NCBI RefSeq assembly: GCF_030384885.1
Contig: NZ_CP128613.1
From: Escherichia coli
GTDB taxonomy: Bacteria; Pseudomonadota; Gammaproteobacteria; Enterobacterales; Enterobacteriaceae
DNA: 64,000 bases
Direction: 5' to 3' (one strand)
Of the stretch, positions 4,107-63,564 are shown piece by piece. Positions within the stretch are counted from its first letter, which is position 1; every line of letters starts with the position of its first letter. The translations under genes were made by a program, and so were the position numbers. The notes below the pieces were generated by a model, which worked only from the letters and a program-made list of their open reading frames with translations, did not search any database and had not been told where the DNA came from.

Positions 4107-4120
4107 CTTATTGATTTAAA

Positions 4121-43476: not shown

Positions 43477-45553
43477 ATCGTTCCTCGCGCTACTGCGCGG
43501 CGGCAATCTCGGCGTGCCGCTGGTGATCTTGTGTATTCTGGCGATGGTTATTTTGCCGCTGCCGCCTGCGCTGCTGGATATTCTGTTCACCTTCAACATT
43601 GTGCTGGCGGTGATGGTGCTGCTGGTGGCGGTGTCGGCGAAACGTCCGCTGGAATTCAGCCTGTTCCCGACTATTTTGCTGATCACCACCTTAATGCGCC
43701 TGACGCTTAACGTTGCTTCTACGCGCGTGGTGCTGCTGCACGGGCATCTCGGCGCGGGCGCAGCGGGTAAGGTGATTGAGTCGTTTGGTCAGGTGGTGAT
43801 TGGCGGCAACTTTGTCGTCGGTTTCGTGGTGTTTATCATCCTGATGATCATCAACTTTATTGTCGTCACCAAAGGGGCCGAGCGTATTTCCGAGGTTTCT
43901 GCCCGCTTTACCCTAGACGCGATGCCCGGCAAGCAAATGGCGATTGACGCCGATCTTAACGCCGGGTTGATCAACCAGGCGCAGGCGCAGACCCGCCGCA
44001 AAGATGTTGCCAGCGAGGCCGATTTCTACGGCGCGATGGACGGGGCATCGAAGTTTGTGCGCGGGGATGCCATCGCCGGGATGATGATTCTGGCGATCAA
44101 CCTGATTGGCGGCGTTTGTATCGGGATCTTCAAATACAACCTGAGCGCCGATGCCGCCTTCCAGCAGTATGTGCTGATGACCATCGGTGACGGGCTGGTA
44201 GCGCAGATCCCGTCCCTGCTGCTCTCTACCGCGGCAGCGATTATCGTCACCCGCGTCAGCGACAACGGCGATATCGCCCATGACGTGCGCCATCAGTTGC
44301 TGGCAAGCCCGTCGGTGCTCTACACCGCCACCGGGATTATGTTCGTGCTGGCGGTGGTGCCGGGAATGCCGCACTTCCCGTTCCTGATGTTCAGCGCCTT
44401 GCTTGGCTTTACCGGCTGGCGAATGAGCAAACGCCCGCAGGCGGCGGAGGCGGAAGAGAAAAGCCTCGAAACGCTGACCCGCACAATCACTGAAACCAGC
44501 GAGCAACAGGTCAGTTGGGAAACCATTCCGCTGATCGAGCCCATCAGTTTAAGCCTCGGTTACAAGCTGGTGGCGCTGGTGGACAAAGCGCAGGGCAACC
44601 CGCTCACCCAGCGTATTCGCGGCGTGCGGCAGGTGATTTCCGACGGCAACGGCGTGCTGCTGCCGGAGATCCGTATTCGCGAAAACTTCCGCCTCAAGCC
44701 CAGCCAGTACGCCATTTTCATCAACGGCATTAAGGCTGATGAAGCTGATATTCCGGCGGATAAACTGATGGCGTTGCCCTCCAGCGAAACCTACGGCGAG
44801 ATAGACGGCGTGCTGGGGAACGACCCGGCGTACGGGATGCCGGTCACCTGGATTCAGCCCGCGCAGAAGGCGAAGGCGCTGAATATGGGGTATCAGGTGA
44901 TCGACAGCGCCAGCGTGATTGCTACCCATGTTAATAAGATTGTGCGCAGCTATATTCCTGATTTGTTTAACTATGACGACATCACGCAGTTGCATAACCG
45001 TTTGTCGTCAATGGCACCGCGCCTGGCAGAGGATTTGAGTGCGGCGCTGAATTACAGCCAGTTGCTGAAAGTGTACCGGGCACTACTGACCGAAGGCGTT
45101 TCCCTGCGCGATATCGTCACCATCGCCACCGTGCTGGTCGCCAGTAGCACCGTCACCAAAGATCATATTCTGCTGGCGGCCGATGTGCGCCTGGCACTGC
45201 GGCGCAGCATTACCCATCCGTTCGTTCGCAAGCAGGAGCTGACGGTGTATACGCTGAATAATGAGCTGGAAAACCTGCTGTCCAACGTGGTGAATCAGGC
45301 GCAACAGGCTGGCAAAGTGATGCTCGATAGCGTGCCGGTGGACCCGAATATGCTCAACCAGTTCCAGAACACGATGCCGCAGGTGAAAGAGCAGATGAAA
45401 GCGGCAGGGAAAGACCCGGTGCTGCTGGTGCCGCCGCAGTTGCGCCCTTTGCTGGCGCGTTATGCGAGGTTGTTTGCGCCGGGGTTGCATGTGCTGTCGT
45501 ATAACGAAGTGCCGGACGAGCTGGAGTTGAAGATTATGGGGGCGTTGAGTTGA
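43460..45553 (+). CDS. lfhA: Flagellar export apparatus gate protein (FlhA homologue), Flag-2, full length
   Basis: 697 aa; N-terminal TM domain, conserved FHIPx-like region and cytoplasmic C-domain. Confidence 0.9.
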   Translation: MAKTTKSFLALLRGGNLGVPLVILCILAMVILPLPPALLDILFTFNIVLAVMVLLVAVSAKRPLEFSLFPTILLITTLMRLTLNVASTRVVLLHGHLGAGAAGKVIESFGQVVIGGNFVVGFVVFIILMIINFIVVTKGAERISEVSARFTLDAMPGKQMAIDADLNAGLINQAQAQTRRKDVASEADFYGAMDGASKFVRGDAIAGMMILAINLIGGVCIGIFKYNLSADAAFQQYVLMTIGDGLVAQIPSLLLSTAAAIIVTRVSDNGDIAHDVRHQLLASPSVLYTATGIMFVLAVVPGMPHFPFLMFSALLGFTGWRMSKRPQAAEAEEKSLETLTRTITETSEQQVSWETIPLIEPISLSLGYKLVALVDKAQGNPLTQRIRGVRQVISDGNGVLLPEIRIRENFRLKPSQYAIFINGIKADEADIPADKLMALPSSETYGEIDGVLGNDPAYGMPVTWIQPAQKAKALNMGYQVIDSASVIATHVNKIVRSYIPDLFNYDDITQLHNRLSSMAPRLAEDLSAALNYSQLLKVYRALLTEGVSLRDIVTIATVLVASSTVTKDHILLAADVRLALRRSITHPFVRKQELTVYTLNNELENLLSNVVNQAQQAGKVMLDSVPVDPNMLNQFQNTMPQVKEQMKAAGKDPVLLVPPQLRPLLARYARLFAPGLHVLSYNEVPDELELKIMGALS

Positions 45554-45636
45554 TTGAGGATTCTTTTCCATACTTTGCAGCACCTGACACCATTAATTGA
45601 CGTCACACTGCAAAGAGACTACGATGACACCATACA

Positions 45637-45936
45637 ATGACGTCATGGATTGATAGTATGATTAAGGTCAGCGCGCTAGGCTCTCGTCATAGAAAAACAT
45701 TCGACGATGTAATGACGGAGCCGCCAAAATCTGGAATTAAATGGGATGATGTTGTTGCTCTCATTAAAGCGGTGGGTGGCTCAATAAAAAATAACAACGG
45801 CTCCAGACGAAAATTTCAGATTGGAACGACCAAATTCAGCACACATGAGCCGCATCCAAAGAATGTGATGGATAAAGGCGCAGTAGCAGGTCTTAAGGAG
45901 TGGTTTGTTAACTGTGTAGGGGTAGATTATGAATAA
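45637..45936 (+). CDS. HicA-like (YcfA fold) putative mRNA-interferase toxin
   Basis: 99 aa; ...KWDDVVALIKAVGGSIKNNNGSRRKFQIGTTKFSTHEPHPKNVMDKGAVAGLKEW resembles the HicA helix-strand-HxP pattern; 8-bp overlap with the downstream partner. Confidence 0.5.
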   Translation: MTSWIDSMIKVSALGSRHRKTFDDVMTEPPKSGIKWDDVVALIKAVGGSIKNNNGSRRKFQIGTTKFSTHEPHPKNVMDKGAVAGLKEWFVNCVGVDYE

Positions 45937-46285
45937 AGCATCGAACATTATCACAATTAAAGGTCAACCAGCCGCAGTGACATTTGAAGCCGATATCAAC
46001 GCATTTCGCGGCAAGTTCCTCAATGTAAACGGTTATTGTGACTTTGTAGCCACAAGTATTGAGGCATTATATCGTGAAGGCGAAAGCGCTCTGGATGAGT
46101 GGATGGCGGATTGTGAAGAGGACGGTATTGCCCCTTTTCGTGAAGAAGAAGAGCAAAAACGCCTGACGCTTCGTGTGCCGCATCACATCGATTCGCGGCT
46201 GACCATCGTCGCCAGACAACATTCCATTTCAAAAAACCAGCTCATTATTGATGTCTTAGAACGTGAGTTTTCAGCCCAGATGTAA
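45929..46285 (+). CDS. HicB-like putative antitoxin with C-terminal ribbon-helix-helix DNA-binding tail
   Basis: 118 aa; acidic linker then RLTLRVPHHIDSRLTIVARQHSISKNQLIIDVLEREF (RHH-like). Confidence 0.5.
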   Translation: MNKASNIITIKGQPAAVTFEADINAFRGKFLNVNGYCDFVATSIEALYREGESALDEWMADCEEDGIAPFREEEEQKRLTLRVPHHIDSRLTIVARQHSISKNQLIIDVLEREFSAQM

Positions 46286-46318
46286 ACAGGTCGGATGCCG
46301 CGTGGCATCCGACCTGTT
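46285..46318. terminator. Perfect hairpin between the HicB-like gene and yafL (bidirectional)
   Basis: AACAGGTCGGATGCCGCGTGGCATCCGACCTGTT. Confidence 0.6.
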
Positions 46319-46341
46319 GCCAGTTCGTCAATATTACCCAT

Positions 46342-47100
46342 TTACAAAATCGTCTCTTCCGTCAAAATCCGCCGCGCGCCTAAAAAATGATCATGCCAGA
46401 AAGGTTCAGCTAACCGACTTACCCGAATGGTTTCCCCGGTGCGCGGCGACTCGATAAACTGACCGTCTCCCAGATACACGCCCATATGGTCGGCAATCTC
46501 GCGGCTGTGAATATGGAAAAACAGCAAATCTCCCCGGCGCAGGTCGTTATTTGCCACAATGGTTGCCCGACGGTAGTGATACATCTCATTGGCCGTGCGC
46601 GGGAGTTTCGCCTCGAGGATCTTGTTGTAGGCATAAAAAACCAACCCGCTACAGTCGAAGCCTTGATCGGGTCGCGTGCCGCCCCAGACGTATGGCTTGC
46701 CAAGCTGCTGCTCCAGACGGTGAATCGCCACTTCGGTGATATTATGCAGGTGGTTACTGCTGAGGAAATGATTGTTTTCCGCCAGCGCCTGCCAGCGTCT
46801 GTCACTCGCCTTGAGCGGCGCAGGAAACCATTCTGGATGCTGTTTTATCTGTTCGCGGTTGTGTTGCCGCAGTGCCCTTCTGCTTTCGGCATTGCCTTCC
46901 ACAATATAGCTGGCCTGCTTTTTCAGATGAATTTGGTACTGTTTTAATAAACGCGCACGGTTTTGCATCCGCTGGCGGGCGGCGTAGCTGAAAGAGATAT
47001 GTGATGTGGTGGCGCTGGCGAGTAAAGGGAGCAAAACGCATAACGAAAACACGCCTGGATGCAGAAATCTGCCGAGCAAGAACGAAGACATGAAGGACAT
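46342..47100 (-). CDS. yafL: NlpC/P60-family peptidoglycan endopeptidase lipoprotein YafL
   Basis: 252 aa with signal peptide; C/H/H catalytic pattern (DCSGLV...H). Confidence 0.8.
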   Translation of the reverse strand: MSFMSSFLLGRFLHPGVFSLCVLLPLLASATTSHISFSYAARQRMQNRARLLKQYQIHLKKQASYIVEGNAESRRALRQHNREQIKQHPEWFPAPLKASDRRWQALAENNHFLSSNHLHNITEVAIHRLEQQLGKPYVWGGTRPDQGFDCSGLVFYAYNKILEAKLPRTANEMYHYRRATIVANNDLRRGDLLFFHIHSREIADHMGVYLGDGQFIESPRTGETIRVSRLAEPFWHDHFLGARRILTEETIL

Positions 47101-47391
47101 AAACCGGCTGAATGAAGGTGAGAATTTTAAAAGACCGGAGGAGTAAACGGGATTATTAATTGCTTATTTGCATATTACTATTGAGGTTTCATAATCTTAG
47201 GAAATAAATGATACATGCGCTTTTCGGACTAATGAAAACTGCCCTTGTGCTAAATTTGTAAACCCTGCGCCGACAGGCTTGCGTAAAACTCTTTTGGTGA
47301 TAATGTGAGCCTTCCAAATCCAGACTATTCCGATTTGGGATCCATTTTGCCGTCCTGGCGTGTGTAACCGTTTTATCAAGGAATAAGCAGT

Positions 47392-48132
47392 ATGCGTAAA
47401 ATCGCATTAATTCTTGCGATGTTGTTGATCCCGTGCGTTTCGTTTGCCGGTTTGCTGGGCAGCAGTAGCTCGACCACGCCAGTGAGCAAAGAGTATAAGC
47501 AGCAGTTGATGGGATCCCCTGTCTACATCCAGATCTTCAAGGAAGAACGTACGCTCGATCTCTACGTCAAAATGGGCGAGCAATATCAACTGCTCGACAG
47601 CTATAAAATCTGTAAATATTCCGGCGGCTTGGGGCCAAAACAGCGTCAGGGCGATTTCAAAAGCCCGGAAGGGTTTTATAGCGTCCAGCGTAATCAGTTA
47701 AAACCAGACAGCCGTTACTACAAGGCGATTAATATCGGTTTCCCCAATGCCTATGACCGTGCGCATGGTTATGAAGGGAAATACCTGATGATCCACGGCG
47801 ATTGTGTTTCCATCGGCTGCTACGCGATGACCAATCAGGGTATTGATGAGATCTTCCAGTTCGTTACTGGTGCGCTGGTGTTTGGTCAGCCGAGCGTGCA
47901 AGTGAGTATTTACCCGTTCCGCATGACCGACGCCAATATGAAGCGCCATAAATATTCCAACTTTAAGGACTTCTGGGAGCAACTGAAGCCGGGCTACGAC
48001 TACTTTGAGCAAACCCGTAAGCCACCGACCGTTTCTGTGGTCAATGGCCGTTACGTGGTCAGCAAGCCGTTAAGCCACGAAGTTGTGCAACCACAGCTGG
48101 CATCAAACTACACGCTCCCCGAGGCAAAATAA
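47392..48132 (+). CDS. yafK: L,D-transpeptidase-fold periplasmic protein YafK
   Basis: 246 aa with signal peptide; YkuD-like motif ...[14 protein letters not shown]. Confidence 0.85.
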
Positions 48133-48870
48133 GCGCCATTCGCCTGGCATAATCTTTTGCCAGGTTTCATTGCCCGTCAGCGGCTGTGTTGCAATCACCG
48201 TGACCACATCATTCGGTGTGGTCTGCGAGCTGAAGTCGATTTCCACATCCTGATCCAGCAACGTTGCCACGCCAAACGGCGCGCGGCGGGTGATCCAGTG
48301 TAAATTAGTCGAGCAATACGCCATTACATAGCGCCCGTCCGAAAGCAGCATGTTGAAAACGCCCTTCTGCCGCAGTTCATCCGCCAGTGAGGCGATATAT
48401 TTAAATACCGCCGCCATGTTGCCCGGTGTGCGCGGGTAACGCTGCGTTAATTTATGTAGGAGCCAGCAGAAGGCTTTTTCGCTGTCGGTTTCGCCTACCG
48501 GGCGGAAGTTGCCGGTTTCCAGTGATTTGTAGCCCGTCAGTTGTCCGTTATGGGCATAAGTCCAGTTACGCCCCCATAACTCGCGGGTAAATGGGTGAGT
48601 ATTTTCCAGCGCCACCTCGCCCCGATTAGCCTGGCGAATATGAGCCACCACCGAACAGGATTTTATCGGGTAGTCCTGGACAAGTTTGGCGATGGGGGAA
48701 TTAAAGCTGGGTTGTGGATCTTTAAATGTGCGACAGCCTTTACCTTCGTAAAAGGTAATGCCCCAGCCATCTTTATGTGGCCCGGTTCCACCACCACGCT
48801 GTACAAGTCCGGTGAAACTAAAGCAGATATCGGTAGGGACGTTGGCGCTCATCCCGAGCAATTCGCACAT
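48103..48870 (-). CDS. yafJ: Class II glutamine amidotransferase-like protein YafJ
   Basis: ORF 48103..48885; start [12 protein letters not shown] with Cys2 nucleophile. Confidence 0.85.
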
Positions 48871-48940
48871 CGGTAACCTCCACAACAGCGGGAGCGCATG
48901 GCCCCCGGCGAAGATTGATTAAAAAGTAATAAGGTGCAGG

Positions 48941-48985
48941 CTGTTACCCTCACCCCGGCCCTCTCCCTGATAGGGAGAGGGAGAA
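48941..48985. repeat. GC-rich palindromic element (boxC/RSA-like), copy 3 (single unit)
   Basis: CCTCACCCCGGCCCTCTCCCTGATAGGGAGAGGGAGAAAAGCCC. Confidence 0.65.
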
Positions 48986-48991
48986 AAGCCC

Positions 48992-49570
48992 TTACTTAGC
49001 CATCTCTTTTTCAATTAACTGGATCAGGATATGGATCACTTTAATGTGAATCTCCTGAATGCGGTCGGCATAACCAAAGTGCGGAACGCGAATTTCGATA
49101 TCCGCCGTGCCAGCCATTTTGCCGCCGTCTTTACCGGTCAGGGTGATCACTTTCATCCCCTTCTCACGCGCCGCTGCGATCGCTTTGATCACGTTTGCAG
49201 AGTTACCAGAGGTGGAGATCCCCAGCAGTACATCGCCTTCGCGACCTACCGCTTCAACGTAACGGGAGAAAATATCATTGAAACCGAAATCGTTACCGAC
49301 GCAGGAAATATGACTAACGTCAGAAATGGCAATCGCCGGATAGCCCGGACGGTTTTCACGGTAGCGCCCCGTCAACTCTTCGGCAAAGTGCATGGCGTCG
49401 CAATGGGAACCGCCATTACCGCAGGAAAGCACCTTACCACCGGCTTTAAAGCTATCTGCTAACAGGACCGCCGCGCGCTGAATGGCGTGAATATTGGCGT
49501 CATCTTTTAAAAAGTTAGCCAGCGTTTCCGCCGCTTCGTTCAGTTCGTTACGAATAAGATCCTGGTACAT
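48992..49570 (-). CDS. gmhA: Phosphoheptose isomerase (sedoheptulose-7-phosphate isomerase)
   Basis: ORF 48992..49732; likely start [17 protein letters not shown] (192 aa), SIS domain. Confidence 0.9.
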
Positions 49571-49809
49571 GAGGATATCCTTCAGCATAAATGTAATAGA
49601 CAAAATGCAGTGTACCGGATACCGCCAAAAGCGAGAAGTACGGGCAGGTGCGATGACCAGGACTTTTTGACCTGAAGTGCGGATAAAAACAGCAACAATG
49701 TGAGCTTTGTTGTAATTATATTGTAAACACATTGCTAAATATTTTTACATCCACTACAACCATATCATCACAAGTGGTCAGACCTCCTACAAGTAAGGGG
49801 CTTTTCGTT

Positions 49810-52254
49810 ATGATGATTTTGAGTATTCTCGCTACGGTTGTCCTGCTCGGCGCGTTGTTCTATCACCGCGTGAGCTTATTTATCAGCAGTCTGATTTTGC
49901 TCGCCTGGACAGCCGCCCTCGGCGTCGCTGGTCTGTGGTCGGCGTGGGTACTGGTGCCTCTGGCCATTATCCTCGTGCCATTTAACTTTGCGCCTATGCG
50001 TAAGTCGATGATTTCCGCGCCGGTATTTCGTGGATTCCGTAAGGTGATGCCACCGATGTCACGCACTGAAAAAGAAGCGATTGATGCAGGCACTACCTGG
50101 TGGGAAGGCGACTTGTTCCAGGGTAAGCCGGACTGGAAAAAGCTGCATAACTATCCGCAGCCGCGCCTGACCGCAGAAGAGCAAGCGTTTCTCGACGGCC
50201 CGGTAGAAGAAGCCTGCCGGATGGCGAATGATTTCCAGATTACTCATGAGCTGGCTGATTTGCCGCCGGAGCTGTGGGCGTACCTTAAAGAGCATCGCTT
50301 CTTCGCGATGATCATCAAAAAAGAGTACGGCGGGCTGGAGTTCTCGGCTTATGCCCAATCTCGTGTGCTGCAAAAACTCTCCGGCGTGAGCGGGATCCTG
50401 GCGATTACCGTCGGCGTGCCGAACTCATTAGGCCCGGGCGAGCTGCTGCAACATTACGGCACTGACGAGCAGAAAAATCACTATCTGCCGCGTCTGGCGC
50501 GTGGTCAGGAGCTCCCTTGCTTTGCACTGACCAGCCCGGAAGCGGGTTCCGATGCGGGCGCGATTCCGGATACCGGGATTGTCTGCATGGGCGAGTGGCA
50601 GGGCCAGCAGGTGCTGGGGATGCGACTGACCTGGAACAAACGCTACATTACGCTCGCGCCAATTGCTACCGTGCTTGGGCTGGCGTTTAAACTCTCCGAC
50701 CCGGAAAAACTGCTGGGTGGTGCAGAAGATTTAGGCATTACTTGTGCGCTGATCCCGACCACCACGCCAGGCGTGGAAATTGGTCGTCGCCACTTTCCGC
50801 TGAACGTACCGTTCCAGAACGGACCGACGCGCGGCAAAGATGTCTTCGTACCGATCGACTACATTATCGGCGGACCAAAAATGGCCGGGCAAGGCTGGCG
50901 GATGCTGGTGGAGTGTCTCTCCGTGGGCCGCGGCATCACCCTACCTTCCAACTCAACCGGCGGCGTGAAATCGGTAGCGCTGGCAACGGGCGCGTATGCG
51001 CACATTCGCCGTCAGTTCAAAATCTCTATCGGTAAGATGGAAGGGATTGAAGAGCCGCTGGCGCGTATTGCCGGGAACGCTTATGTAATGGATGCTGCGG
51101 CATCGCTGATTACCTACGGCATTATGCTCGGTGAAAAACCTGCCGTGCTGTCGGCTATCGTTAAGTATCACTGTACCCACCGCGGGCAGCAGTCGATTAT
51201 TGATGCGATGGATATCACCGGGGGCAAAGGCATTATGCTCGGGCAAAGCAACTTCCTGGCCCGTGCTTACCAGGGCGCACCGATTGCCATCACCGTTGAA
51301 GGGGCCAACATTCTGACCCGCAGCATGATGATCTTCGGTCAGGGAGCGATTCGTTGCCATCCGTACGTGCTGGAAGAGATGGAAGCGGCGAAGAACAATG
51401 ACGTTAACGCGTTCGATAAACTGCTATTCAAACATATCGGCCACGTCGGCAGTAACAAAGTTCGCAGCTTCTGGCTGGGCCTGACGCGCGGTTTAACCAG
51501 CAGCACACCAACCGGCGATGCCACTAAACGTTATTATCAGCACCTGAACCGCCTGAGTGCCAACCTCGCCCTGCTTTCTGATGTTTCGATGGCGGTGCTG
51601 GGCGGCAGCCTGAAACGTCGCGAACGCATCTCGGCACGTCTGGGGGATATTTTAAGTCAGCTTTACCTCGCCTCTGCCGTTCTGAAGCGTTATGACGACG
51701 AAGGCCGTAATGAAGCCGACCTGCCGCTGGTGCATTGGGGCGTACAGGATGCGCTGTATCAGGCTGAACAGGCAATGGACGATTTACTGCAAAACTTCCC
51801 GAACCGCGTGGTTGCCGGGCTGCTGAATGTGGTGATCTTCCCGACCGGACGCCATTATCTGGCACCGTCTGACAAACTGGATCATAAAGTGGCGAAGATT
51901 TTACAAGTGCCTAACGCCACCCGTTCACGTATTGGTCGCGGTCAGTACCTGACGCCGAGCGAGCATAACCCGGTTGGTTTACTGGAAGAGGCGCTGGTGG
52001 ATGTGATTGCCGCCGATCCGATTCATCAGCGGATCTGTAAAGAGCTGGGTAAAAACCTGCCATTTACCCGTCTGGATGAACTGGCGCACAACGCGCTGGC
52101 AAAGGGGCTGATTGATAAAGATGAAGCCGCTATTCTGGTGAAAGCTGAAGAGAGTCGTCTGCGCAGTATTAACGTTGATGACTTTGAGCCGGAAGAGCTG
52201 GCGACGAAGCCGGTAAAGTTGCCGGAGAAAGTGCGGAAAGTTGAAGCCGCATAA
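49810..52254 (+). CDS. fadE: Acyl-CoA dehydrogenase FadE
   Basis: ORF 49732..52254; likely start [17 protein letters not shown] (814 aa). Confidence 0.9.
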
Positions 52255-52261
52255 TTGAATA

Positions 52262-52281
52262 ACGGAGCCGAAAGGCTCCGT
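52262..52281. terminator. Hairpin between convergent fadE and ivy
   Basis: ACGGAGCCGAAAGGCTCCGT followed by TTTCATT. Confidence 0.6.
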
Positions 52282-52296
52282 TTCATTATCCGCTAA

Positions 52297-52770
52297 TTAT
52301 TTAAAATTAAAGCCATCCGGATGATTTTCCAGGCTGCCGGTCAACGCCGCGAATAGCACCGTTTTACCATCAATCGAAAGCGCATCATTCACATTCAACC
52401 AGGTGAGTTTCTCTTGCGACGTTTTCTCATCAATGGTCGAGAACAGCCCCGTCATCTGATTAGATTTCTCGGACCACATCACAGCGATACGTTGCGAGCC
52501 ACAGTCATGCGGTTTGCACGCGCTCATCACCTGATACGTCTCATCTCCCAACGTTACGGTTTGTGCAGGGGTATAAGTCCCGCCTTTCATCACCCAGGCA
52601 GGCAGCTTATGCCCTTGCACCATCTGATTAAACGCAGCTTTGGTGGTTTCGCCCTTTGCAAGGCTGCTAATGGTTAAATCATCCTGCGCCATTGCACTGG
52701 TGGCGATGACCAGAGCGGCGACTGTTGTTATTGCCTTAAACATCATTCCTCCCGAGCTTATCCTGCCCAT
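52297..52770 (-). CDS. ivy: Inhibitor of vertebrate lysozyme (Ivy)
   Basis: 157 aa, signal peptide, CKPHDCG loop motif. Confidence 0.9.
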   Translation of the reverse strand: MGRISSGGMMFKAITTVAALVIATSAMAQDDLTISSLAKGETTKAAFNQMVQGHKLPAWVMKGGTYTPAQTVTLGDETYQVMSACKPHDCGSQRIAVMWSEKSNQMTGLFSTIDEKTSQEKLTWLNVNDALSIDGKTVLFAALTGSLENHPDGFNFK

Positions 52771-52914
52771 GTTATTAACCTCCTAAAGCCTGGCGATAAC
52801 ACGATAATTTGCAAATCAGATATTTCCAATATCAGCATTTGTTATCAATTTATTCTGCGCTAAGGCAACTGCCTGATAAGGTGTTAAAGTTATAAAACCC
52901 TTCACATAAAGGAG

Positions 52915-53694
52915 TTGTACACCGTGCCTGGCTTGAAGATTACGCTTTTGCAGCAACCACTGGTGTGGATGGATGGTCCTGCCAACCTGCGCCATTTTGA
53001 TCGTCAACTAGAAGGTATTACCGGGCGCGATGTGATCGTTCTACCGGAGATGTTTACCAGCGGCTTTGCCATGGAAGCGGCAGCTTCGTCGCTAGCACAA
53101 GATGACGTAGTGAACTGGATGACAGCTAAAGCGCAGCAGTGCAATGCGCTGATTGCAGGCAGTGTTGCATTACAAACGGAGTCTGGTTCGGTTAACCGCT
53201 TTTTGCTGGTTGAGCCGGGCGGCACGGTACATTTTTATGATAAGCGTCATCTGTTCCGAATGGCAGATGAGCATCTGCATTATAAAGCGGGCAATGCGCG
53301 AGTGATTGTGGAATGGCGCGGCTGGCGTATTTTGCCGCTGGTGTGCTACGACCTGCGTTTTCCGGTGTGGTCGCGCAATCTCAACGATTATGACCTCGCC
53401 ATCTACGTTGCCAACTGGCCTGCACCGCGCTCTCTGCACTGGCAGGCATTGCTGACGGCCCGCGCGATTGAGAATCAGGCGTATGTGGCGGGATGCAATC
53501 GCGTCGGCAGCGATGGCAACGGCTGCCATTATCGCGGTGACAGCCGGGTGATTAATCCACAGGGCGAGATTATTACTACTGCCGACGCGCATCAGGCAAC
53601 GCGCATTGATGCCGAGTTGTCGATGGCGGTGTTAAGGGAATATAGAGAAAAGTTTCCAGCATGGCGGGATGCGGATGAGTTTAGGTTGTGGTGA
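52915..53694 (+). CDS. yafV: Nitrilase-superfamily omega-amidase YafV
   Basis: 259-aa ORF; carbon-nitrogen hydrolase pattern (E...K...C triad context). Confidence 0.85.
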   Translation: MYTVPGLKITLLQQPLVWMDGPANLRHFDRQLEGITGRDVIVLPEMFTSGFAMEAAASSLAQDDVVNWMTAKAQQCNALIAGSVALQTESGSVNRFLLVEPGGTVHFYDKRHLFRMADEHLHYKAGNARVIVEWRGWRILPLVCYDLRFPVWSRNLNDYDLAIYVANWPAPRSLHWQALLTARAIENQAYVAGCNRVGSDGNGCHYRGDSRVINPQGEIITTADAHQATRIDAELSMAVLREYREKFPAWRDADEFRLW

Positions 53695-53699
53695 GTGGG

Positions 53700-54950
53700 G
53701 GTTGTGTTTAGGGCCGGGGAGAGTCGGGGTAAGACTACGAAAGCCCGCTCCCAGCAAGGACTGACGCCAGATAGTTTCTGTCCATGGCTGCTTTTCGCAT
53801 CTTACGTCTTAACCCTGCCTTGAATACCTTATCATTCGTTAAAATATTAATAGCGATGTGCCGTATCCCTGAAAATAATTCTGCGGCGTTTCCTCTTCGT
53901 ATTTTGCAGTCGTCTTCATTCATTACCACGTCCAGACGCCAGTGCAGCTTATTCTCCACGTGCCAGTGATTTCGGATCGCTGTGGCGAACTTTTCTGCGG
54001 TTAAATCAGCAGAACTGATATAATATCTGACCGTCATTTCTGGCTCTTTCTTTTGTTCTGCTATTATTGACCGAAAGGAGAATGCCACGCATAATTTCTT
54101 CAGTCCTTTCCATTCAAACGTGAAATCAATAAGTTCATCACGGACATCGCAAACAATATGAAGACGGATTTCTTCTCTGCCGTGACTCTTTTCACTCATT
54201 GCGTAACTGTCATGCTCTGGATTATTTAATTCTTTCAGCGGAAATTTTTCCTCGAAGGCTTTATTTAGCCGCCCCTGGTTTCCTTTTACAGCGAATAAAT
54301 AATCACCTCCCTGTTTTTGTATCTTCTCTGCAATATCTTTCTGGCAACCCATCGCATCAGTTGTGATGATTTTTCCTTTAATATCCAGAATGTTAAGAAG
54401 TTCTGGGATAGCTGTAATCTCATTGGATTTCTCATCCGTCCTGATCTGTCCGATGACCAGACTGTGCATTGTTGAGAATGCACTAATGACATGAATCGCT
54501 CCCCTGCGGCGACTCTTGTCATAAGAATGCCGGAGTGTTTTTCCATCAATTGCGATGACGTCTTTATCATCTGAAGTATGGCAATCTCGCATCCAGTTAA
54601 TAAAGCACTCGTGAAATTTTGAAGGACTGATACAGGATACAACTCTGGCGATGGTATCGTGAACAGGAATACCATTTTCAAAATCACCATATTGTTTTAA
54701 AAAATCGCGATGTGCTTCCCCAAACTCCTCTATATGTTCCCAGCCTTCTGCACCAGAAATAACGGCACAAATAGTCAACAGTAGAATATCCGACAATTTA
54801 TGTTTCACTTTTGCAGGATTGTCTGTAATCGGGAATAACAGAAATATGTTCCATCAATTTTTTAAGTTCCATTCTTTTCTCCTTAATTATGTAAGGAGTA
54901 TTTGATCATGTATAAGCAATAAAAAAACAGCTTCAGGCAATGAGGAATAT
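53700..54950 (-). mobile_element. ISAs1-family insertion sequence (H-repeat element), approximate boundaries
   Basis: Transposase ORF plus flanking sequence; terminal inverted repeats not mapped. Confidence 0.5.
53735..54808 (-). CDS. ISAs1-family (H-repeat-associated) transposase; N-terminus appears frameshifted
   Basis: 357-aa ORF from a GTG; an upstream ATG-initiated segment ([21 protein letters not shown]) lies in a different frame across an A-run near 54809-54812. Confidence 0.8.
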
Positions 54951-54994
54951 CTCAATTTTTAAACATAAAATGCGAATTGTTTAGTACAAAAAAG

Positions 54995-57000
54995 CAGCGT
55001 TAAGTGAGTAGGCCACCGGAACCTCCCCGACAGCCTCTCGCAGAACCGTACGTGAAACTCTCGCTTCATACGGCTCCCGTCAGGCAAACGCGCTTCCTGG
55101 TCCTGCTTTCCAGTGGGCAAACAACTCCGGCTTCTCTTTTGACAGCCTTTCCATTAGCTGACACGCCTTCGTCTTTCTATACCGCAGGGTTTTATATTTC
55201 TTTCTCGCCCACGCAATCAGCGTCAGATTAATATATCTGCATACTTTCTTCATCGCTGATTTGTGGTATCTCGCGTAATAATTCAGCCACCCCGATATTA
55301 TCGGATTCAGCCACTTCGCAATATCTTCGAGACTCATCTCCACCCTGCGTCTGATCCACAGTTTCCTGAGTTTTCCAATCATGCCTTTCTGCGCACGGTT
55401 ACTCGCCGCCGGGCTGAAACTCGTAAAGAGGTTTCCCCGCCGGTGGTTACGTGCTCTTCGCGCTCTGAACGTATACCCCAGAAAATCAAACTGCACTGTT
55501 TCATGGTTCGCCTGTCGTTCGCTGTCTTTGCAGTAAACTATTTTCGTTTTCTCCGGATGTAATTCCAGTCCACATTCCTGAAAACGTTTTGCCAGCTTAT
55601 TCAGTAATTCCTCTGCCTGTTGTTTACTGCCACAATGAATTAATCCATCATCTGCATAACGGCACCAGGGAATTTCCGGATAATGTAACGTCAGCCATTT
55701 ATCAAACACATAGTGCAGAAATAAATTCGCCAGTACCGGGCTGATGACTCCACCCTGTGGCGTACCTTTATTTCTTTCCTTCAGTGTTCCATCCGGCATC
55801 TGCACCGGCGCTGTCAGCCACCGGCGAATAGACAGTCTTACCCATTTATCCGCACAATGTTTATCCACTGCCCTGAGTAATAAATCGTGGGGGATATTAT
55901 CGAATAACCCTTTAATATCAAACTCAAGACACCAGTCGTATTGCCAGCAACGTTTTCTGGTGACTGCTATTGCATCCAGCGCTGATTTTCCATGCCGGTA
56001 TCCGTATGAATCATTCAGGAAATAACGCTCCACTAATGGTTCAAACGTTACCAGCACCGTCATCTGCGCTATTCGATCGCTTACTGTCGGTATTCCTAAA
56101 AGTCTTTTGCTGCCATCCTTCTTCGGAATTTCCACCGCACGCACTGGCGGCGGCATCCAGCTTCCCGACGATAACCTGTTCCAGATTTTGTACAGATTTC
56201 CTTTCAGATCCCGCTCAAAATCTTTCAGCGTCTGGTTATCCACTCCGGCAGCTCCGGCATTCGCCTTTATCCGCCGGTACGCTTCCACCACATGCAATTT
56301 ACTGACCTGAAACGGTTTTGTCTGTTCACACACAGCCTCCTCCTGCCTACAGTTGGGCTGTGATGCAGACTGCCCGACGCTGTCCCTTCGCTCCACGTTC
56401 ATTACAAACGCTTCCTCACTACTACGAACAGCTCTGCCCCGGTTTCGCACATCGATACTCTCATACTCATAATTTCGGTTATTTGTATTTCTCTCTTGAC
56501 ATTGCGACGACCGGTTCCCGTAGTTCCTGCAAAGAGCCCGATACAGCGTCATGCCTGCTATACACCGGACATCATTCACGCAGCATTCGGAATTCACCCG
56601 TAAATTAATCCCGGCGGTATCACGAAACCTCCGGTTTTGATGTCACTTAGGACTAACGACGTTTCAACACAGGTTCGGGTTTACTCATCTCACTGTATCT
56701 CACATAGGATCAGATCTCGTCTGATCGTTCCCCCTGCGCTCACTACCATGGCTCTTTACCACAGCAGCCGGGGTTGTTTGGGACCGACTTCCGACAGCAG
56801 ATCCCGGTGGGCCTGCCACCATCTCTTCACAAGCTTATGCTTATTACATGCAAAACGTCCCGTTTTGCATCTTTGTGCCTACGGCACACCGTGATCTTTC
56901 CCTAGCATATCGCCCTGACGCGCCGCTGGTTTTACGCTCATGGTATCTCCTTAAATTATTTTGGGCTGTATTCTGGCACCATAGACTCTGATTTATCACC
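54995..57000 (-). mobile_element. Bacterial group II intron (approximate boundaries) with intron-encoded reverse transcriptase/maturase
   Basis: RT ORF plus a domain V hairpin on the minus strand (GAGCCGTATGAAGCGAGAGTTTCACGTACGGTTC, about 55042-55075) immediately 3' of the ORF stop; 5' boundary estimated about 0.6 kb upstream of the ORF start. Confidence 0.7.
55080..56597 (-). CDS. Group II intron reverse transcriptase/maturase (true start probably internal, about 56402)
   Basis: RT fingers/palm motifs incl. YADD (CRYADDGLIHC), then maturase X-domain and C-terminal Zn-finger-like region. Confidence 0.85.
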   Translation of the reverse strand: MNSECCVNDVRCIAGMTLYRALCRNYGNRSSQCQERNTNNRNYEYESIDVRNRGRAVRSSEEAFVMNVERRDSVGQSASQPNCRQEEAVCEQTKPFQVSKLHVVEAYRRIKANAGAAGVDNQTLKDFERDLKGNLYKIWNRLSSGSWMPPPVRAVEIPKKDGSKRLLGIPTVSDRIAQMTVLVTFEPLVERYFLNDSYGYRHGKSALDAIAVTRKRCWQYDWCLEFDIKGLFDNIPHDLLLRAVDKHCADKWVRLSIRRWLTAPVQMPDGTLKERNKGTPQGGVISPVLANLFLHYVFDKWLTLHYPEIPWCRYADDGLIHCGSKQQAEELLNKLAKRFQECGLELHPEKTKIVYCKDSERQANHETVQFDFLGYTFRARRARNHRRGNLFTSFSPAASNRAQKGMIGKLRKLWIRRRVEMSLEDIAKWLNPIISGWLNYYARYHKSAMKKVCRYINLTLIAWARKKYKTLRYRKTKACQLMERLSKEKPELFAHWKAGPGSAFA

Positions 57001-57138
57001 AATACTCAAAACACCATTAATCAGAAAAATCAGCATCTACATATAATTAATTAGAATAATTCAATAAATTATTTTTCTGCCATTATTGACTTGGCTTTTT
57101 ATTGAATGAAATAAAAGAAAAAATCATCACCTAAAAAT

Positions 57139-57777
57139 TTAGTAGACGTTTCTTGTTACTATATGCGCATCATCAACCAAACGCCCGGAACTATCTGTTT
57201 CCTCATGATCAGATACACACATTTCTGGTGCATATCCTGAAAAATCAGAAGTCGCATTCGGATAATTTGTGACATCTAATCTTAATTTAAAACTATATAT
57301 CTCCCAAAATAATTCAGGAGATCTTTCAGGCAAAAAATCATAAATATCAATAAGTATCTTCATCCCCCTTACACGGAACTCCCTCCTGTGTCCATATAAC
57401 GGATGATCTTTACATCCACCAATGATTTGGGACAGAAAAAATCTTGCTCGTGTTTCTGTTACTCCCCAATTAGCAACAGGTTGAAAAATTTCAGAACCAT
57501 CTTTCACACTAAAAAATTTACATTGGTAAAAGCCTGAAAACGTACCATATTCTCCAATATATTTTTCTGATTCATTATAATCCATGCAAACAAAAACATA
57601 TTCAATATCTCCATTTTTTGCCATAACATCATGGATAATAAATGGATTGTTTTGTGATACAGAGAAAATACTATGTACGTTCTGCACTTCAACATTTAAA
57701 GCCCATATATCACTGGGAAAGAAAATCAAACATATCAAATACAACCAAAATTTCATTATTGCGTACCACTCGGACAA
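57139..57777 (-). CDS. Putative immunity protein cognate to the upstream Rhs C-terminal toxin (secreted/periplasmic, about 205-212 aa)
   Basis: Starts at or overlapping the Rhs-fragment stop; hydrophobic N-terminus; AT-rich. Confidence 0.45.
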
Positions 57778-58748
57778 CTCATATCATCAGGTATAGTAAT
57801 TATTACATCTTGAATGCCCATATCCTTCTCTAGCCCTGGTATTTCAAGAATCAACTTTCCGGGATTTTTATCCATTAACTTTTGCTGAGGGTTTATATTA
57901 TTTCTACGCAAAGCCGAATCATCAACGATGTCCCTGACACAACTAAACAGCTGAGTACCATCAGCTTTTAATTTTCCGCTAATAGAATTTATTTTATTTC
58001 TGGCAGATGGTTTATCCCTAAATCCCCATTGAGAAGGGATAATTGCTGTCGAGTCAGTTGTTACTCCGTATTTATCCAAATTTGAAGGACTAGTGTTATA
58101 TCCACCACCTTTCCCAACTAGTCTCGAATTTCCTTGTAATACTCGTGCGCTGCCTATACATTCTTTTAACCCCAAAGGATCTATATACCCCACAGGATCC
58201 AGCGGATACGCATACAGGTTCCAGCCCCCCTTCAGCCCTATCGGATCCTGGGTAATATACCTCCCCTGCAACGGGTCATAGTACCGGTGATGGTTGTAAT
58301 ACAGTCCCGACTCCTCATCATACTGCTGCCCCGGCAGACGGAGTGACTGTTGCAGGTGCAGCGTGCTTTCCTCTCCCAGCAGGTTTCCCCACTCGTCATA
58401 CTCCCCCTGCCACGCCGTTTCCCCTTCCGGGCTGATGAGCGCCTGCGGCAGCCCACGGTGGTCACAGTGGTAAAGATGAAGTTTCCTCTCCGGGATGTAT
58501 TCCGCCTCCATCTGCGCCGCCATCTGTTCCGCCGTCAGCCCGCACTGCGCAAGCCACTGCTGGCTTTCCTCACTCACCGCGCCCGTGCGCAGCTCCCGCT
58601 CCAGCCTTCCCAGCATCACCGCCAGCTCCGCCGGTAGCGTCACCCCCGTGTCCTCCTGCAACATCTCCGCCAGGCTATCCTGCATCGCCGTCTGGCCGGA
58701 AAGCCTGCAACAGCAGCAGGCTACGACACAATGGAATGAAGCACTCAA
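57756..58748 (-). CDS. Orphan Rhs C-terminal fragment: end of Rhs core (DPxGL boundary) plus about 140-aa variable toxin domain
   Basis: 330 aa; ...[45 protein letters not shown] then an unrelated AT-rich C-terminal domain; no full-length rhs upstream. Confidence 0.7.
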
Positions 58749-59105
58749 AACCCGCGCACAGAGTAGCCCACAGTTGCGTGGCTGGTTGCAGACCCGCCAG
58801 GACTTACATGCTTTTGCAGATCTCGTGATGCAGCGCGAGAAAGAGGGATTAACCCTTTCCTATATCAAAAATGTCATCTGGCAGGCGGAGCGGGGGCTGG
58901 GGCAGGAAACGCCTGTGGAATCTCTGCTGACGCAGTACCAGGATGCCCGTGCGCAGAAGCAGAATACAGATGCGCTGGAAAAACAGATTAACGAGCGGAT
59001 GGACGGCGTGTTAAGTCGCTGGCTGCTGCTGAAGAATAATACGATACCGACGATAAAAAAAGACATTGAATTTCAATAACATTCATGAATACAAAGGAGC
59101 TTTAA

Positions 59106-59585
59106 ATGGCGAATTTAATTTATTTAACACTAAATGGTGATAATCAAGGGCTCATTTCAAGTGGTTGTTCATCACAACCATCCATTGGAAATAAAGCTCA
59201 AACAGCACACATTGATCAAATTATGATTTATGAATTCATGCATGGATTAAATCGAGATCAAAACGTCAACCATCATCATTTGACAATAAAAAAACCTATA
59301 GATAAAGCATCACCCTTATTAGGCAAAGCAATTTGCGACAATGAATTATTGACATGTGATTTTTCCTTTTATCGTACAAATAAATTTGGAATTAATGAAC
59401 TGTACTATAAAATCAAATTAACTGGAGCAAAGATAAGCGACATTCATGTCTCTATATCACATATTGTTGTTGATAACAGCGTTCAACCCGAAGAGTCAGT
59501 TTCTTTCAGTTATGAGTCAATTATATGGGAGCATTGTTCCGCTGGCACTAGTGCATACAGTTTATGGGAAGATCGTCTTTTTTAA
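59106..59585 (+). CDS. hcp: Hcp-family protein (type VI secretion tube/carrier), orphan copy
   Basis: 159 aa; MANLIYLTLNGDNQGLISSG... and KPIDKASPLLGKAICDNELLTCDFSFYR...ELYYKIKLTGAKISDI match Hcp beta-sandwich conserved stretches by eye. Confidence 0.65.
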   Translation: MANLIYLTLNGDNQGLISSGCSSQPSIGNKAQTAHIDQIMIYEFMHGLNRDQNVNHHHLTIKKPIDKASPLLGKAICDNELLTCDFSFYRTNKFGINELYYKIKLTGAKISDIHVSISHIVVDNSVQPEESVSFSYESIIWEHCSAGTSAYSLWEDRLF

Positions 59586-59605
59586 AAATATCTGGGATTA
59601 TTATA

Positions 59606-60502
59606 ATGGCTAACAATATTTTACACTCTTCAACATCAGACAGTGAAAACAAAAATACAAGCACTGACAGTACGTTATTTAATGAAAAATTCCCATTTCA
59701 ACTAAGGCAAGATTTCGCATCAAGAATAACAGAAGATGAAAGTGATTTTTTTAAATGGAAAAAAATAAGAGAGTTGGCATTTGTGAGCAATCATAAAGAA
59801 TGGAATAAATATGACTTATTAATTTTAAAATCTGTTAATGAAATCAACATTCATTTGTCCAGCACTCCATACTTTCAGCCGTTGGATTGGTATATAATAA
59901 AAGCCATGCTCTGGACTGAAAACGATGCGGCAAATACTTCTCAGTGGAATGGTTATCCATTACAAATTGGTCGTTTTCGGAAAGATAAAGCGATGCCTGC
60001 TTTAATTTCTGGAGAAAAATCCACAGCCCTTGTTACCCCCCCACAATGGAGAAACAAAGCATTCAATGGGTTAAAAGATCCAGAAAGAAATTACTGGGCA
60101 AAAGAACAAATAACTGGCTCTCCAGAAGAGAATATCAAAGCAGCAATTACTTACTTAATGATGAAACTTTCTAATACAAAGGAAGAGTCAACTATCGTTC
60201 AATATGACTCAACTCTATATAGCACCATTGTCCAAAAAGGCGATTTGGCTGACAACATCAGAAAAGAGAGAAAAACGACCATACCTAACTTAACGAAAAA
60301 CAACCCTGGAAAAAATCTCGATAAAATACACCCGGGAGATATTTTATATTATCAAAAAGCATCCATGAAAGTAATAATTACTGGATGGAAACCTATCACA
60401 ATAAAAAATGTAGCGATGAATTATAATGGTGGTGGAGATCCCAAGTATGCAATAAAACTTCAGTTCGTTTATACATTGCTCACAAAAAACAGAGTGTTAT
60501 AA
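59606..60502 (+). CDS. Putative Hcp-associated effector (about 298 aa, no Cys, C-terminal LysM-like segment)
   Basis: ORF 59564..60502; likely start MANNILHSS; C-terminal YSTIVQKGDLADNIRKERKTTIPNLTKNNPGKNLDKIHPGDILYY resembles LysM spacing; followed by two small secreted proteins. Confidence 0.4.
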   Translation: MANNILHSSTSDSENKNTSTDSTLFNEKFPFQLRQDFASRITEDESDFFKWKKIRELAFVSNHKEWNKYDLLILKSVNEINIHLSSTPYFQPLDWYIIKAMLWTENDAANTSQWNGYPLQIGRFRKDKAMPALISGEKSTALVTPPQWRNKAFNGLKDPERNYWAKEQITGSPEENIKAAITYLMMKLSNTKEESTIVQYDSTLYSTIVQKGDLADNIRKERKTTIPNLTKNNPGKNLDKIHPGDILYYQKASMKVIITGWKPITIKNVAMNYNGGGDPKYAIKLQFVYTLLTKNRVL

Positions 60503-60504
60503 GA

Positions 60505-60954
60505 ATGGGAAAAATAACAATTATTCTACTGCTTACATTCTCATGTACAAAAGGTCTGGCATTTGACATTTCCATGTCTAAAGAATGTAGTGGCGTTGAT
60601 GAACTTGAATTTGTTGATTGTGTTAAAAACTCATTTATTATGAGCACTATTACACTTAAAAAAGCAGAAGTAAATATAAAAGAGAAAATTAAAAAATGGA
60701 ATAACGATGAGGACGAAGCAATAAGAAAAGAAGCAGTTATTTCTTTAAAAAGACTAGAATCTTCTAATCGGGAATTTATACGTTACAGATTTGCTCAATG
60801 CTCTTTTGCTCTAACCTGGGGGGCCAGAGTAGGACGTCTGGCATTCTCTCGACTATATCCATGCTATACTGAGTTAAACAAAATTAGAGCCATGCAACTA
60901 AACAATGCTTTCATTTCAGATTTTCAAAACCCAGATGAGATATCCAGCAAATGA
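60505..60954 (+). CDS. Small secreted Cys-containing helical protein; putative immunity protein 1
   Basis: 149 aa, N-terminal signal/anchor, four Cys; 3 bp after effector stop. Confidence 0.4.
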   Translation: MGKITIILLLTFSCTKGLAFDISMSKECSGVDELEFVDCVKNSFIMSTITLKKAEVNIKEKIKKWNNDEDEAIRKEAVISLKRLESSNREFIRYRFAQCSFALTWGARVGRLAFSRLYPCYTELNKIRAMQLNNAFISDFQNPDEISSK

Positions 60955-61307
60955 TTATTATAAAATTAAGATTAACATTACTATTTATACTGGCCACAAT
61001 TACATATTCAGTACAATCAGACGAATTCGATGATCAAACCACTTACACGAAATACCGTTATTTTTCCACAGCCATACCAGAAGATATACGTAGATTTATG
61101 TTCTACGTAGATTATTGCTTTGTAGATTTAGCATTCGATATCGAAACTGACTCAATGACAGCTAAAAATGATATTATTAATGAATGTACTCCATTAAAAG
61201 AAAGAAACAAAACATTAAAAGAAAAATATAAAAAAGATGAAGAGATAATAGCAATTCTTTCCATTGCAGATGATACCATTTTAATTTATGAAGAATTAAA
61301 AAAATAA
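60951..61307 (+). CDS. Small secreted protein; putative immunity protein 2
   Basis: 118 aa with signal peptide; 4-bp overlap with previous gene; very AT-rich. Confidence 0.35.
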   Translation: MIIIKLRLTLLFILATITYSVQSDEFDDQTTYTKYRYFSTAIPEDIRRFMFYVDYCFVDLAFDIETDSMTAKNDIINECTPLKERNKTLKEKYKKDEEIIAILSIADDTILIYEELKK

Positions 61308-61433
61308 CTCACATGCAATTCACTGGCAATATATATTATAATTTTATAAAAAAAATAATATTTACATTATAGAAATACTCAGCTCCTGTTTGCTGCCCGC
61401 CCTAAACTACAGGCGGCAGCATAACAATAACGA

Positions 61434-62234
61434 TTACTGGAATCGACTCACCAAGTCTTTCACCATCGATACATATGTTTTTTGTTTCAAATTAAACAGT
61501 TGCACTTCCGTAACATGGTCCTTTGATAGTTCTTTATTGCTCGTTTTTGTTATTCCAGCCGGCGGAAAAATTACTCTCGATTCATAATTCACCGGCGACC
61601 AGGTAGCCCACTCACCTGTTGCCACATCCACCAGCGTGAAACGTACCAGGTAGCGCAGGGAGATAGTGTCAGTGAGTTTTTCATTTTTATAGTCGGACCA
61701 TACTGTTGATTTCAGCGCAGAGTCATATTTTCCTGTCTGCAACGTATCATGGTAAACAATAATCGCTTTCTGATGCCCTTTCGCAGCCACAAAACGCAAT
61801 GCCTGCATCCAGTTCATATTTTCAGCACTGGCAACATCCTCGTTCTCATTTTTATCTTTATTTTTGTTACAAGTCAGAGGCTTTTGCCTGTCCGGGATAC
61901 CAGAGAATGTGGAAACAGTATAATATTTTCTCATCTCCTCCTGCATAATGGTTTCCGGTGCGCGACTGCCAGACTGGACAAGTATTACGGGAGAATTGAG
62001 AGGCACACGAAACTCATCTCCTTCAAGCGCAGCCTGAATATCCTCCTCGGATACAGCCAGAGTGGTTTCATTACCGAATAAATCTTTGTCTGTCAGTTGC
62101 GGGGGAATGTTTTTATTAATATTACTTTGTGTAACTTGAGCTTTTTTCTTTTTTTCATCAATAGAAGATTGAGAGGCACATCCTGCAAGCAGCGAGAATA
62201 ATACACATATGCAACAAACTTTTTTTGAATTCAT
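61434..62234 (-). CDS. yafT: Lipoprotein YafT
   Basis: 266 aa with lipobox LLAGC; conserved position next to aspV. Confidence 0.7.
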
Positions 62235-62559
62235 AATCGGACACTCCCTCGCCTGTCATAATGATTAGAATATTTAGCACTGATAACGGACTCTAATTAT
62301 ATACCCCACTTAAATAATAACAAACAAAATCAACATGAAATATACATTCATTTAGTCAATATAAAATTATTCTCTAAAAATATATTTAAGTTGAATGGTT
62401 CGATATCATTATTGAATTTTAATAAATGAGACAACAAGCGAGAGTTACGCACTTACGCCAGAGTAAAATCATTGAACAGAGAAATAGCGGGATTTAAATG
62501 CAAAAAACCGCAAAATTAAAAATCTTGCGGTTCTCTGAACTCATTTTCATGAGTAAATT

Positions 62560-62636
62560 TGGCGGAACGGACGGGACTCGAACCCGCGACCCCCTGCGTG
62601 ACAGGCAGGTATTCTAACCGACTGAACTACCGCTCC
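62560..62636 (-). tRNA. aspV: tRNA-Asp (anticodon GUC)
   Basis: Reverse complement reads GGAGCGGTAGTTCAGTCGGTTAGAATACCTGCCTGTCACGCAGGGGGTCGCGGGTTCGAGTCCCGTCCGTTCCGCCA. Confidence 0.9.
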
Positions 62637-62768
62637 GCGTTGTGTTCCGTTGGGAACGAGGCGAATATTACGGATTGCCTCACCCTTCGTCAACGGTTTT
62701 TCTCATCTTTTGAATCGTTTGCTGCAAAAATCGCCCAAGTCGCTATTTTTAGCGCCTTTTACAGGTAT

Positions 62769-63500
62769 TTATGCCCGCCAGAGGCAGCTTCCGCCCTTTT
62801 TCTGCACCAGATCGAGACGGGCTTCATGTGCCGCAAGCTCTTCATCTGTCGCAAAAACAACGCGTAACTTACTTGCCTGACGCACAATGCGCTGAATTGT
62901 TGTTTCACCTTGTTGCTGTTGTGTCTCTCCTTCCATCGCAAAAGCCATCGACGTTTGACCACCAGTCATCGCCAGATAAACTTCCGCAAGGATCTGGGCA
63001 TCGAGTAATGCCCCGTGCAGCGTTCGTTTACTGTTATCTATTTCATAACGAGCACATAACGCATCAAGGCTGTTGCGCTTGCCAGGAAACATTTTCCTCG
63101 CCACCGCAAGGCTATCTGTGACCTTACAGAAGGTATTGGTCTTCGGAATATCGCGCTTGAGCAACGAAAACTCATAGTCCATAAAGCCGATATCGAACGC
63201 TGCGTTATGGATCACGAGCTCCGCGCCGCGAATATAGTTCATGAACTCATCGGCTACTTCGGCAAATGTGGGCTTATCGAGCAAAAACTCATCGGCAATA
63301 CCATGTACGCCAAAGGCTTCTGGATCCACCAGCCGATCGGGTTTGAGATAAACGTGAAAGTTATTGCCCGTCAGGCGACGGTTCACCACTTCAACGGCAC
63401 CAATCTCAATGATCTTGTGGCCTTCATAGTGCGCACCAATCTGGTTCATACCGGTGGTTTCGGTATCGAGAACGATCTGGCGTGTAATTGCAGTGCTCAT
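62769..63500 (-). CDS. dnaQ: DNA polymerase III epsilon subunit (3'-5' proofreading exonuclease)
   Basis: ORF 62769..63509; start [20 protein letters not shown]; DEDDh motifs. Confidence 0.95.
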
Positions 63501-63564
63501 AGCGGTCATTTATGTCAGACTTGTCATTTTACAGTTCGATTCAATTACAGGAAGTCTACCAGAG

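Follow-up and report, generated by a model that had tools for sequence, protein, structure and literature searches.

The window analysed here, a 64,000-nucleotide stretch of Escherichia coli contig NZ_CP128613.1, carries in order fadE, ivy, yafV, a frameshifted insertion sequence (IS), a group II intron, an Rhs core and VgrG. The IS is a copy of ISEc1, the H-repeat of E. coli Rhs elements: along its full length its DNA is ~97% identical to known ISEc1, and it occupies the same site beside yafV. H-repeat copies at Rhs loci have long been known. ISEc1-related sequence is present in 5353 of 5426 complete E. coli genomes, at a median of five places per genome that are almost all chromosomal. We take K-12 yafF to be an H-repeat pseudogene at the same min-5 locus as the window copy, and ybfL and yncI to be further H-repeat pseudogenes of E. 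coli.

The surroundings of the element were compared with E. coli 2013C-4282, with which window positions 43841-58677 (14.8 kb) are colinear with 8 mismatches and no gaps. Positions 16761-43841 hold ~27 kb that is extra relative to 2013C-4282, between the dinB/lafU side and a truncated flhA-like gene, and this may be a putative intact lateral-flagella (Flag-2) cluster. At the other end, similarity to 2013C-4282 is lost altogether over positions 58678-64000, the break falling within the Rhs core/tip region that lies upstream of the IS; variable Rhs tips would be expected to give this pattern. Further away, dinB (~15434-16489, minus strand) has a C run at 16372 that is C6 in the window, where 352 codons are open, and C5 in 2013C-4282, where the gene is annotated 'frameshifted'. 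The discrepancy reflects either genuine variation between the strains or a wrong homopolymer length in the public assembly of 2013C-4282.

A transposase gene in two frames

The transposase pseudogene lies at 53735-54872 on the minus strand and is 1138 nt long, against 1137 nt in intact copies, owing to a 1-nt insertion. Its ATG (54872-54870) stands 8 bases 3' of AAGGAG, a strong Shine-Dalgarno sequence, and opens the reading ATG GAA CTT AAA AAA TTG ATG GAA CAT ATT TCT GTT ATT CCC GAT TAC AGA CAA TCC TGC AAA AGT GAA ACA TAA. This upstream fragment (54798-54872, minus strand) thus has 24 codons and a stop at 54800-54798. Alignment to the intact protein identifies codons 1-21 as the native N-terminus, except that codons 19 and 20 give Ser and Cys for Ala and Trp, while the reading from codon 22 to the stop has run on out of frame. 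The main open reading frame (ORF; 53735-54808, minus strand) comprises 357 codons from a GTG at 54808-54806, which corresponds to Val22 of the intact protein, to a TAG at 53737-53735. The stop of the short ORF falls 8 nt downstream of this GTG and 2 nt upstream of an in-frame TTG.

The two starts are 64 nt apart, or 21 codons plus 1 nt, which confirms the earlier observation that the ATG and the main ORF are out of frame, the latter being shifted by +1. The break had been placed across a 4-A run, and alignment to intact copies puts the extra base exactly there: the run at 54809-54812 (minus strand), directly 5' of the GTG, is A4 in the window and A3 in intact copies. The gene is hence split into 21 + 357 codons where the family has a single uninterrupted ORF of ~376-378 codons. 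Apart from this insertion the main ORF is fully open. The frame break is a deterministic feature of the sequence, to which a chance model is inapplicable. A span of 53735-54880 had been proposed for the whole feature; its 53735 end holds, whereas 54880 overshoots the ATG by 8 nt into the ribosome-binding site.

The ISAs1-family assignment of the sequence-only reading is borne out by profile searches. The NCBIfam ISAs1 transposase model NF033564 matches at 414.4 bits (E 2.9e-124, cut-off 70) over profile positions 1-314 of 314, and the Pfam domains DDE_Tnp_1_assoc (PF13808) and DDE_Tnp_1 (PF01609) are both found. The main ORF holds complete DDE_Tnp_1 and the remainder of DDE_Tnp_1_assoc, which is matched there from profile position 17 (17-88) versus position 2 in the intact protein. 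The acidic residues D109, D172 and E306 (intact numbering), which are invariant in a 15-sequence alignment, are present in the window ORF.

The segment that the main ORF lacks is well conserved. Relatives were aligned from E. coli, Salmonella, Citrobacter, Serratia, Dickeya, Raoultella and Enterobacter, among other named sources, and from metagenome records. All 13 full-length relatives (376-378 aa, down to 66% identity) begin with M-L--L--HI(S/T)(I/V)IPDYRQ-(W/G)K. In the alignment of these with the intact protein, positions 1-21 rank with the better conserved stretches of the protein; M1, L6, I10, I13, P14, D15, Y16, R17, Q18 and K21 each reach at least 90% conservation. Lost with these 21 residues are IIPDYRQ, the best-conserved motif of the N-terminus, and 16 positions of DDE_Tnp_1_assoc, the N-terminal Pfam domain. 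Database proteins of only 346-372 aa were considered as possible natural GTG-start forms, and those inspected proved to be partials or internal-deletion variants. The predicted structure of the intact 378-aa protein is of low confidence (mean pLDDT 58), with residues 1-30 below 50.

Upstream of the ATG lies a hairpin, CUCCUUA/UAAGGAG with the loop CAUAAU (54879-54898, minus strand), whose 3' arm is the Shine-Dalgarno sequence of the ATG. It has a dG of -8 kcal/mol (z -2.6) and is invariant in all copies aligned. The arrangement resembles the device of IS10 and IS50, in which translation of read-through transcripts is silenced while the element's own transcript is translatable. A promoter-like -10 sequence, CATAAT (54891-54886, minus strand), is found in and beside the hairpin loop; matches in a promoter scan of the locus were not above those in shuffled sequence, and this site is noted rather than claimed as a promoter.

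Element ends and the intron at the left end

On the minus strand, 53725-55002 is the IS body, which runs from just inside the left inverted repeat as far as the right tip and is defined by homology with copies at other loci. This homology ends at 53727 (53725 if tip mismatches are allowed) and begins at 55007/55002. With the 15-nt left tip added and the intron removed the element totals 1293 bp and has two 1-nt insertions relative to intact copies. Copies at different loci give the IS ends as CAGGGAAAGATCACG on the left and its complement, ...CGTAATCTTTCCCTG, on the right. The right inverted repeat (53725-53739, plus strand) is degenerate, reading CGGGGTAAGACTACG versus CAGGGAAAGATTACG at other loci, with 3 mismatches; it contains the TAG stop of the transposase and is common to all yafV-locus copies examined. 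The left tip (56890-56904, minus strand) reads TAGGGAAAGATCACG, with 1 mismatch to CAGGGAAAGATYAC, and is 1887 nt from the body. The locus therefore holds a ~1.3-kb element with CAGGG... terminal inverted repeats, of which both tips are imperfect and the left is split off. Scanning the locus for inverted repeats failed to pick out these ends, since the intron stands between the left tip and the rest of the IS.

ISAs1-family elements generate a target-site duplication of 8-10 bp according to ISfinder. Here it is absent, as GGCGATATGC on the left flank bears no relation to ACTCTCCCCG on the right, which is expected of an old or recombined insertion. Directly upstream of the left tip, positions 56905-56940 (minus strand) hold a short ORF that has a good ribosome-binding site, encodes MSVKPAARQGDML and ends in the tip. 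It resembles the N-terminal remnant of a gene truncated when the H-repeat inserted.

The intervening DNA is a group II intron of 1887 nt (55003-56889, minus strand) that starts with GUGUG, 15 nt inside the left end of the IS. Rfam models place domains 1-4 (RF01999) at 56820-56703 and domains 5-6 (RF00029, full model 1-77) at 55078-55003. The reverse transcriptase/maturase ORF within it (55080-56402), annotated as ltrA in a near-identical genome, is apparently intact. When 56889-55003 is removed, what remains matches exactly the junction GATCACG|TAACGCTGC of other copies that have no intron. An alternative boundary, GUGUG...CCUAC with a 5-nt TCACG exon duplication, was rejected, given that none of the intronless copies in 5426 genomes has the 5 nt and that Rfam aligns to 55003. 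The split left repeat and the right repeat with its 3 mismatches indicate that the element is also crippled in cis. The frameshift, the intron-split left repeat and the degenerate right repeat together leave it with neither a working transposase gene nor a clean pair of ends.

Among 5426 E. coli genomes, just 83 have the complete intron, and roughly 2400 have a 5' remnant of ~170-207 nt. BL21(DE3) and VE-V11-M carry at the same locus an IS tip and ~158 nt of intron remnant directly upstream of a complete H-repeat. This suggests that the intron-bearing arrangement is ancestral at the yafV locus and was later overwritten.

Origin of the extra base and its interpretation

Intact alleles are available from the same site. 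In VE-V11-M and BL21(DE3) the position adjoining yafV is occupied by one 1137-nt, 378-codon coding sequence, and the intact H-repeat transposases WP_126509284.1 and WP_221840786.1 (378 aa) come from the same locus as the window copy. Alignment to intact family members had been suggested as a check, and against these 1137-nt genes of other strains it returns a 1-nt insertion: a single extra base, exactly at the A run. The intact sequence reads CAA GCC TGG AAA GTG GAA CAT AAA and the window CAA TCC TGC AAA AGT GAA ACA TAA. Between them stands an intermediate allele, CCTGGAAAAGTGG/CCTGGAAAAGTGGAACA (TGG AAA AGT GG), which differs from the intact form here only by the extra A. It was recognised in the ybfD copy of strain 104 and occurs exactly in 65 genomes, always in a decayed ybfD pseudogene.

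These alleles show that a single A was inserted into the AAA of codons 20-22 (A3 to A4), most simply by replication slippage, changing TGG AAA GTG to TGG AAA AGT G. A G-to-C change (Trp20 to Cys) and a G-to-A change (Glu23 to Lys) came later. On the aligned sequences the direction of change can be taken as certain, from intact to A4, because the continuous frame is common to the 376-378-aa proteins of several genera. Since the intermediate allele carries only the extra A, insertion followed by two substitutions is the simplest history.

The window allele itself is rare. Its exact 71-nt form was found in 2 of 5426 genomes, 2013C-4282 (same locus) and N96 (ydcC/yddH locus), and with 1 mismatch in EC42405 (yiiX/metJ locus). 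Each genome that has it carries a single copy, and nothing suggests that it has proliferated. NCBI's PGAP pipeline has independently annotated two of these copies, that of 2013C-4282 (over the identical interval) and that of N96, as a pseudogene: 'ISAs1 family transposase; frameshifted'.

Other carriers of the A4 run have decayed further. The EC42405 copy has an additional -1 deletion, and ybfD copies are annotated 'frameshifted; internal stop; incomplete'. In the window copy, residues at conserved sites have been replaced (W20C, D46H, D49E, L55R, P244R and V264F), and its dN/dS against intact copies is 0.22-0.27, compared with 0.12-0.16 for other pairs. The raised dN/dS and the conserved-site replacements point, if weakly, to decay.

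Ribosomes starting at the well-equipped ATG would terminate after 24 codons, and the 357-codon remainder would have no ribosome-binding site of its own. A product started at the GTG would miss 21 N-terminal residues that are strongly conserved across the family. It is very likely that transposase function has been lost, as judged from the broken frame, the conserved N-terminus and an element that is also disabled in cis. The reading held here with high confidence is that of a transposase pseudogene belonging to a fossil ISEc1 (H-repeat) copy at the conserved site between the Rhs/VgrG cluster and yafV. As the 357-codon ORF is otherwise open and the invariant acidic residues are kept, either the inactivation is recent or the body has been refreshed by gene conversion. 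Reversion would need the loss of only one A.

Inactivation was one of three options offered by the sequence-only reading, along with an internal GTG start and programmed frameshifting, and is the one backed by evidence, namely intact genes at the same locus, the conserved N-terminus and the decay. A fourth explanation is that the run is truly A3 and the gene intact, the extra base being a sequencing or assembly error. Homopolymer-length errors do happen in long-read assemblies, and a one-C difference between the C5 and C6 runs of 2013C-4282 and the window breaks dinB in 2013C-4282. Four bases are, however, short for such an error, and three further assemblies of independent origin share the allele, its two neighbouring substitutions included, each at a different locus; the A4 run is also found in 65 further genomes. 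The window assembly is also distinct from that of 2013C-4282, from which it differs by the 8 mismatches over 14.8 kb, the large structural differences and the dinB C run. Even with A3 the copy would have Cys20 and Lys23 at conserved positions. As four assemblies agree on the run and its flanking substitutions, comparison indicates that the A4 run is real and not an artefact, and an error is scarcely credible. An internal GTG start, or reinitiation after the 24 codons, would instead yield an N-truncated protein, acting either as a transposase or as a trans-acting inhibitor of other ISEc1 copies. The GTG and TTG flank the stop of the short ORF in a geometry compatible with translational coupling, and the long ORF is open with an intact catalytic domain. 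Nonetheless, the sequence before the GTG (CCUGCAAAAGUG) has no Shine-Dalgarno motif, and the missing IIPDYRQ and Pfam N-terminal positions make transposase activity unlikely. Intact members that also start at this GTG had been named as the observation that would count against a frameshift; the alignment contains none, as 13 of 13 full-length relatives begin 21 residues upstream. The inhibitor role would be drawn purely from analogy. A functional truncated product is thus considered very unlikely.

Programmed +1 frameshifting at UGC AAA AGU would have the tRNA-Lys on AAA slip to give the full-length 378-aa transposase at a regulated low level. The sequence A AAA A offers this tRNA perfect +1 re-pairing, the restored product would be near-native, and low transposase output is a common strategy among IS elements. 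Against this, the two-frame layout is not conserved, all full-length relatives being single-frame, and an intact single ORF is both ancestral and dominant. The exact allele is confined to 2 of 5426 genomes and A4 is otherwise seen only in decayed ybfD copies. The next codon, AGU, is neither a stop nor a known hungry codon, the stop coming three codons further on, and inspection upstream of the A AAA A site found no Shine-Dalgarno-like stimulator. A four-A run is too short for transcriptional slippage. Other A4 carriers have gained stops, deletions and truncation, and the allele's presence once per genome without proliferation likewise speaks against a working recoding signal. Programmed frameshifting is accordingly given almost no credence, though background +1 slippage on A AAA A could conceivably give some full-length product.

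Related elements and movement of the allele

In its CAGGG... type of inverted repeat, its ribosome-binding-site hairpin and its place at the distal end of an Rhs/VgrG cluster, the window copy is the same as intact ISEc1. It differs in the ORF broken after codon 21, the left repeat split by an intron and the substituted conserved residues. It shares with the ybfD-type H-repeat pseudogenes the same IS, the same A3-to-A4 insertion and an immobile, decaying fate. Unlike the truncated, stop-bearing ybfD copies, it is otherwise full length and open.

Several IS elements express their transposase by programmed frameshifting, which is -1 in IS1 and the IS3 family; prfB is recoded by +1. Such recoding is conserved across the family concerned. 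IS1 and the IS3 family use A6G-type heptamers with downstream structure, and prfB uses CUU UGA with an upstream Shine-Dalgarno sequence. The upstream frame in programmed-frameshift systems encodes a functional domain. The window gene is similar to programmed-frameshift IS elements in having two overlapping frames with the catalytic part downstream. Unlike them it has an unconserved +1 offset without stimulators, and its upstream frame has only 21 native residues, the last two of which are substituted. The Inh protein of Tn5 is an N-truncated transposase made from an intact gene with a dedicated promoter and internal start, and is conserved. The hypothetical GTG product would likewise be a transposase without its extreme N-terminus; here, though, the truncation would stem from a rare mutation.

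Transposition of H-rpt elements has not been observed at all according to a genome paper (PMC3032704). In the full-text literature on H-rpt/Rhs, ISAs1/ISEc1 frameshifting and group II introns with H-repeats, this remark was the only one found.

Annotation should treat the gene as a pseudogene and not as a transposase with a GTG start, and should count the IS copy neither as a transposase source nor as a mobile element. It is an IS pseudogene of an already known kind, with nothing new in kind. The series from the intact gene to +A, to +A with substitutions, and on to added deletions and stops neatly illustrates how H-repeat copies decay at Rhs loci. Beyond correct annotation the case has little importance, and current understanding is unchanged.

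The comparative series also shows that alleles move between Rhs loci by recombination. A related but bolder proposal is that the allele is not wholly dead. Reinitiation at the GTG or TTG, or +1 slippage, would give a little truncated protein, possibly dampening other ISEc1 copies, or some full-length transposase, and the allele and the group II intron would travel together between Rhs-associated H-repeats by gene conversion. Taken as a whole this is extremely improbable. In N96 (NZ_CM169999.1), positions 1943-5125 correspond to window positions 56903-53721 and carry the IS tip, the intron and the frameshifted transposase at ydcC/yddH. This unit is near-identical to the window from the intron to ~230 nt past it, frameshift included, and is then clearly more divergent. 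Such a mosaic is consistent with gene conversion, or with intron homing and co-conversion, carrying the frameshift allele between H-repeats.
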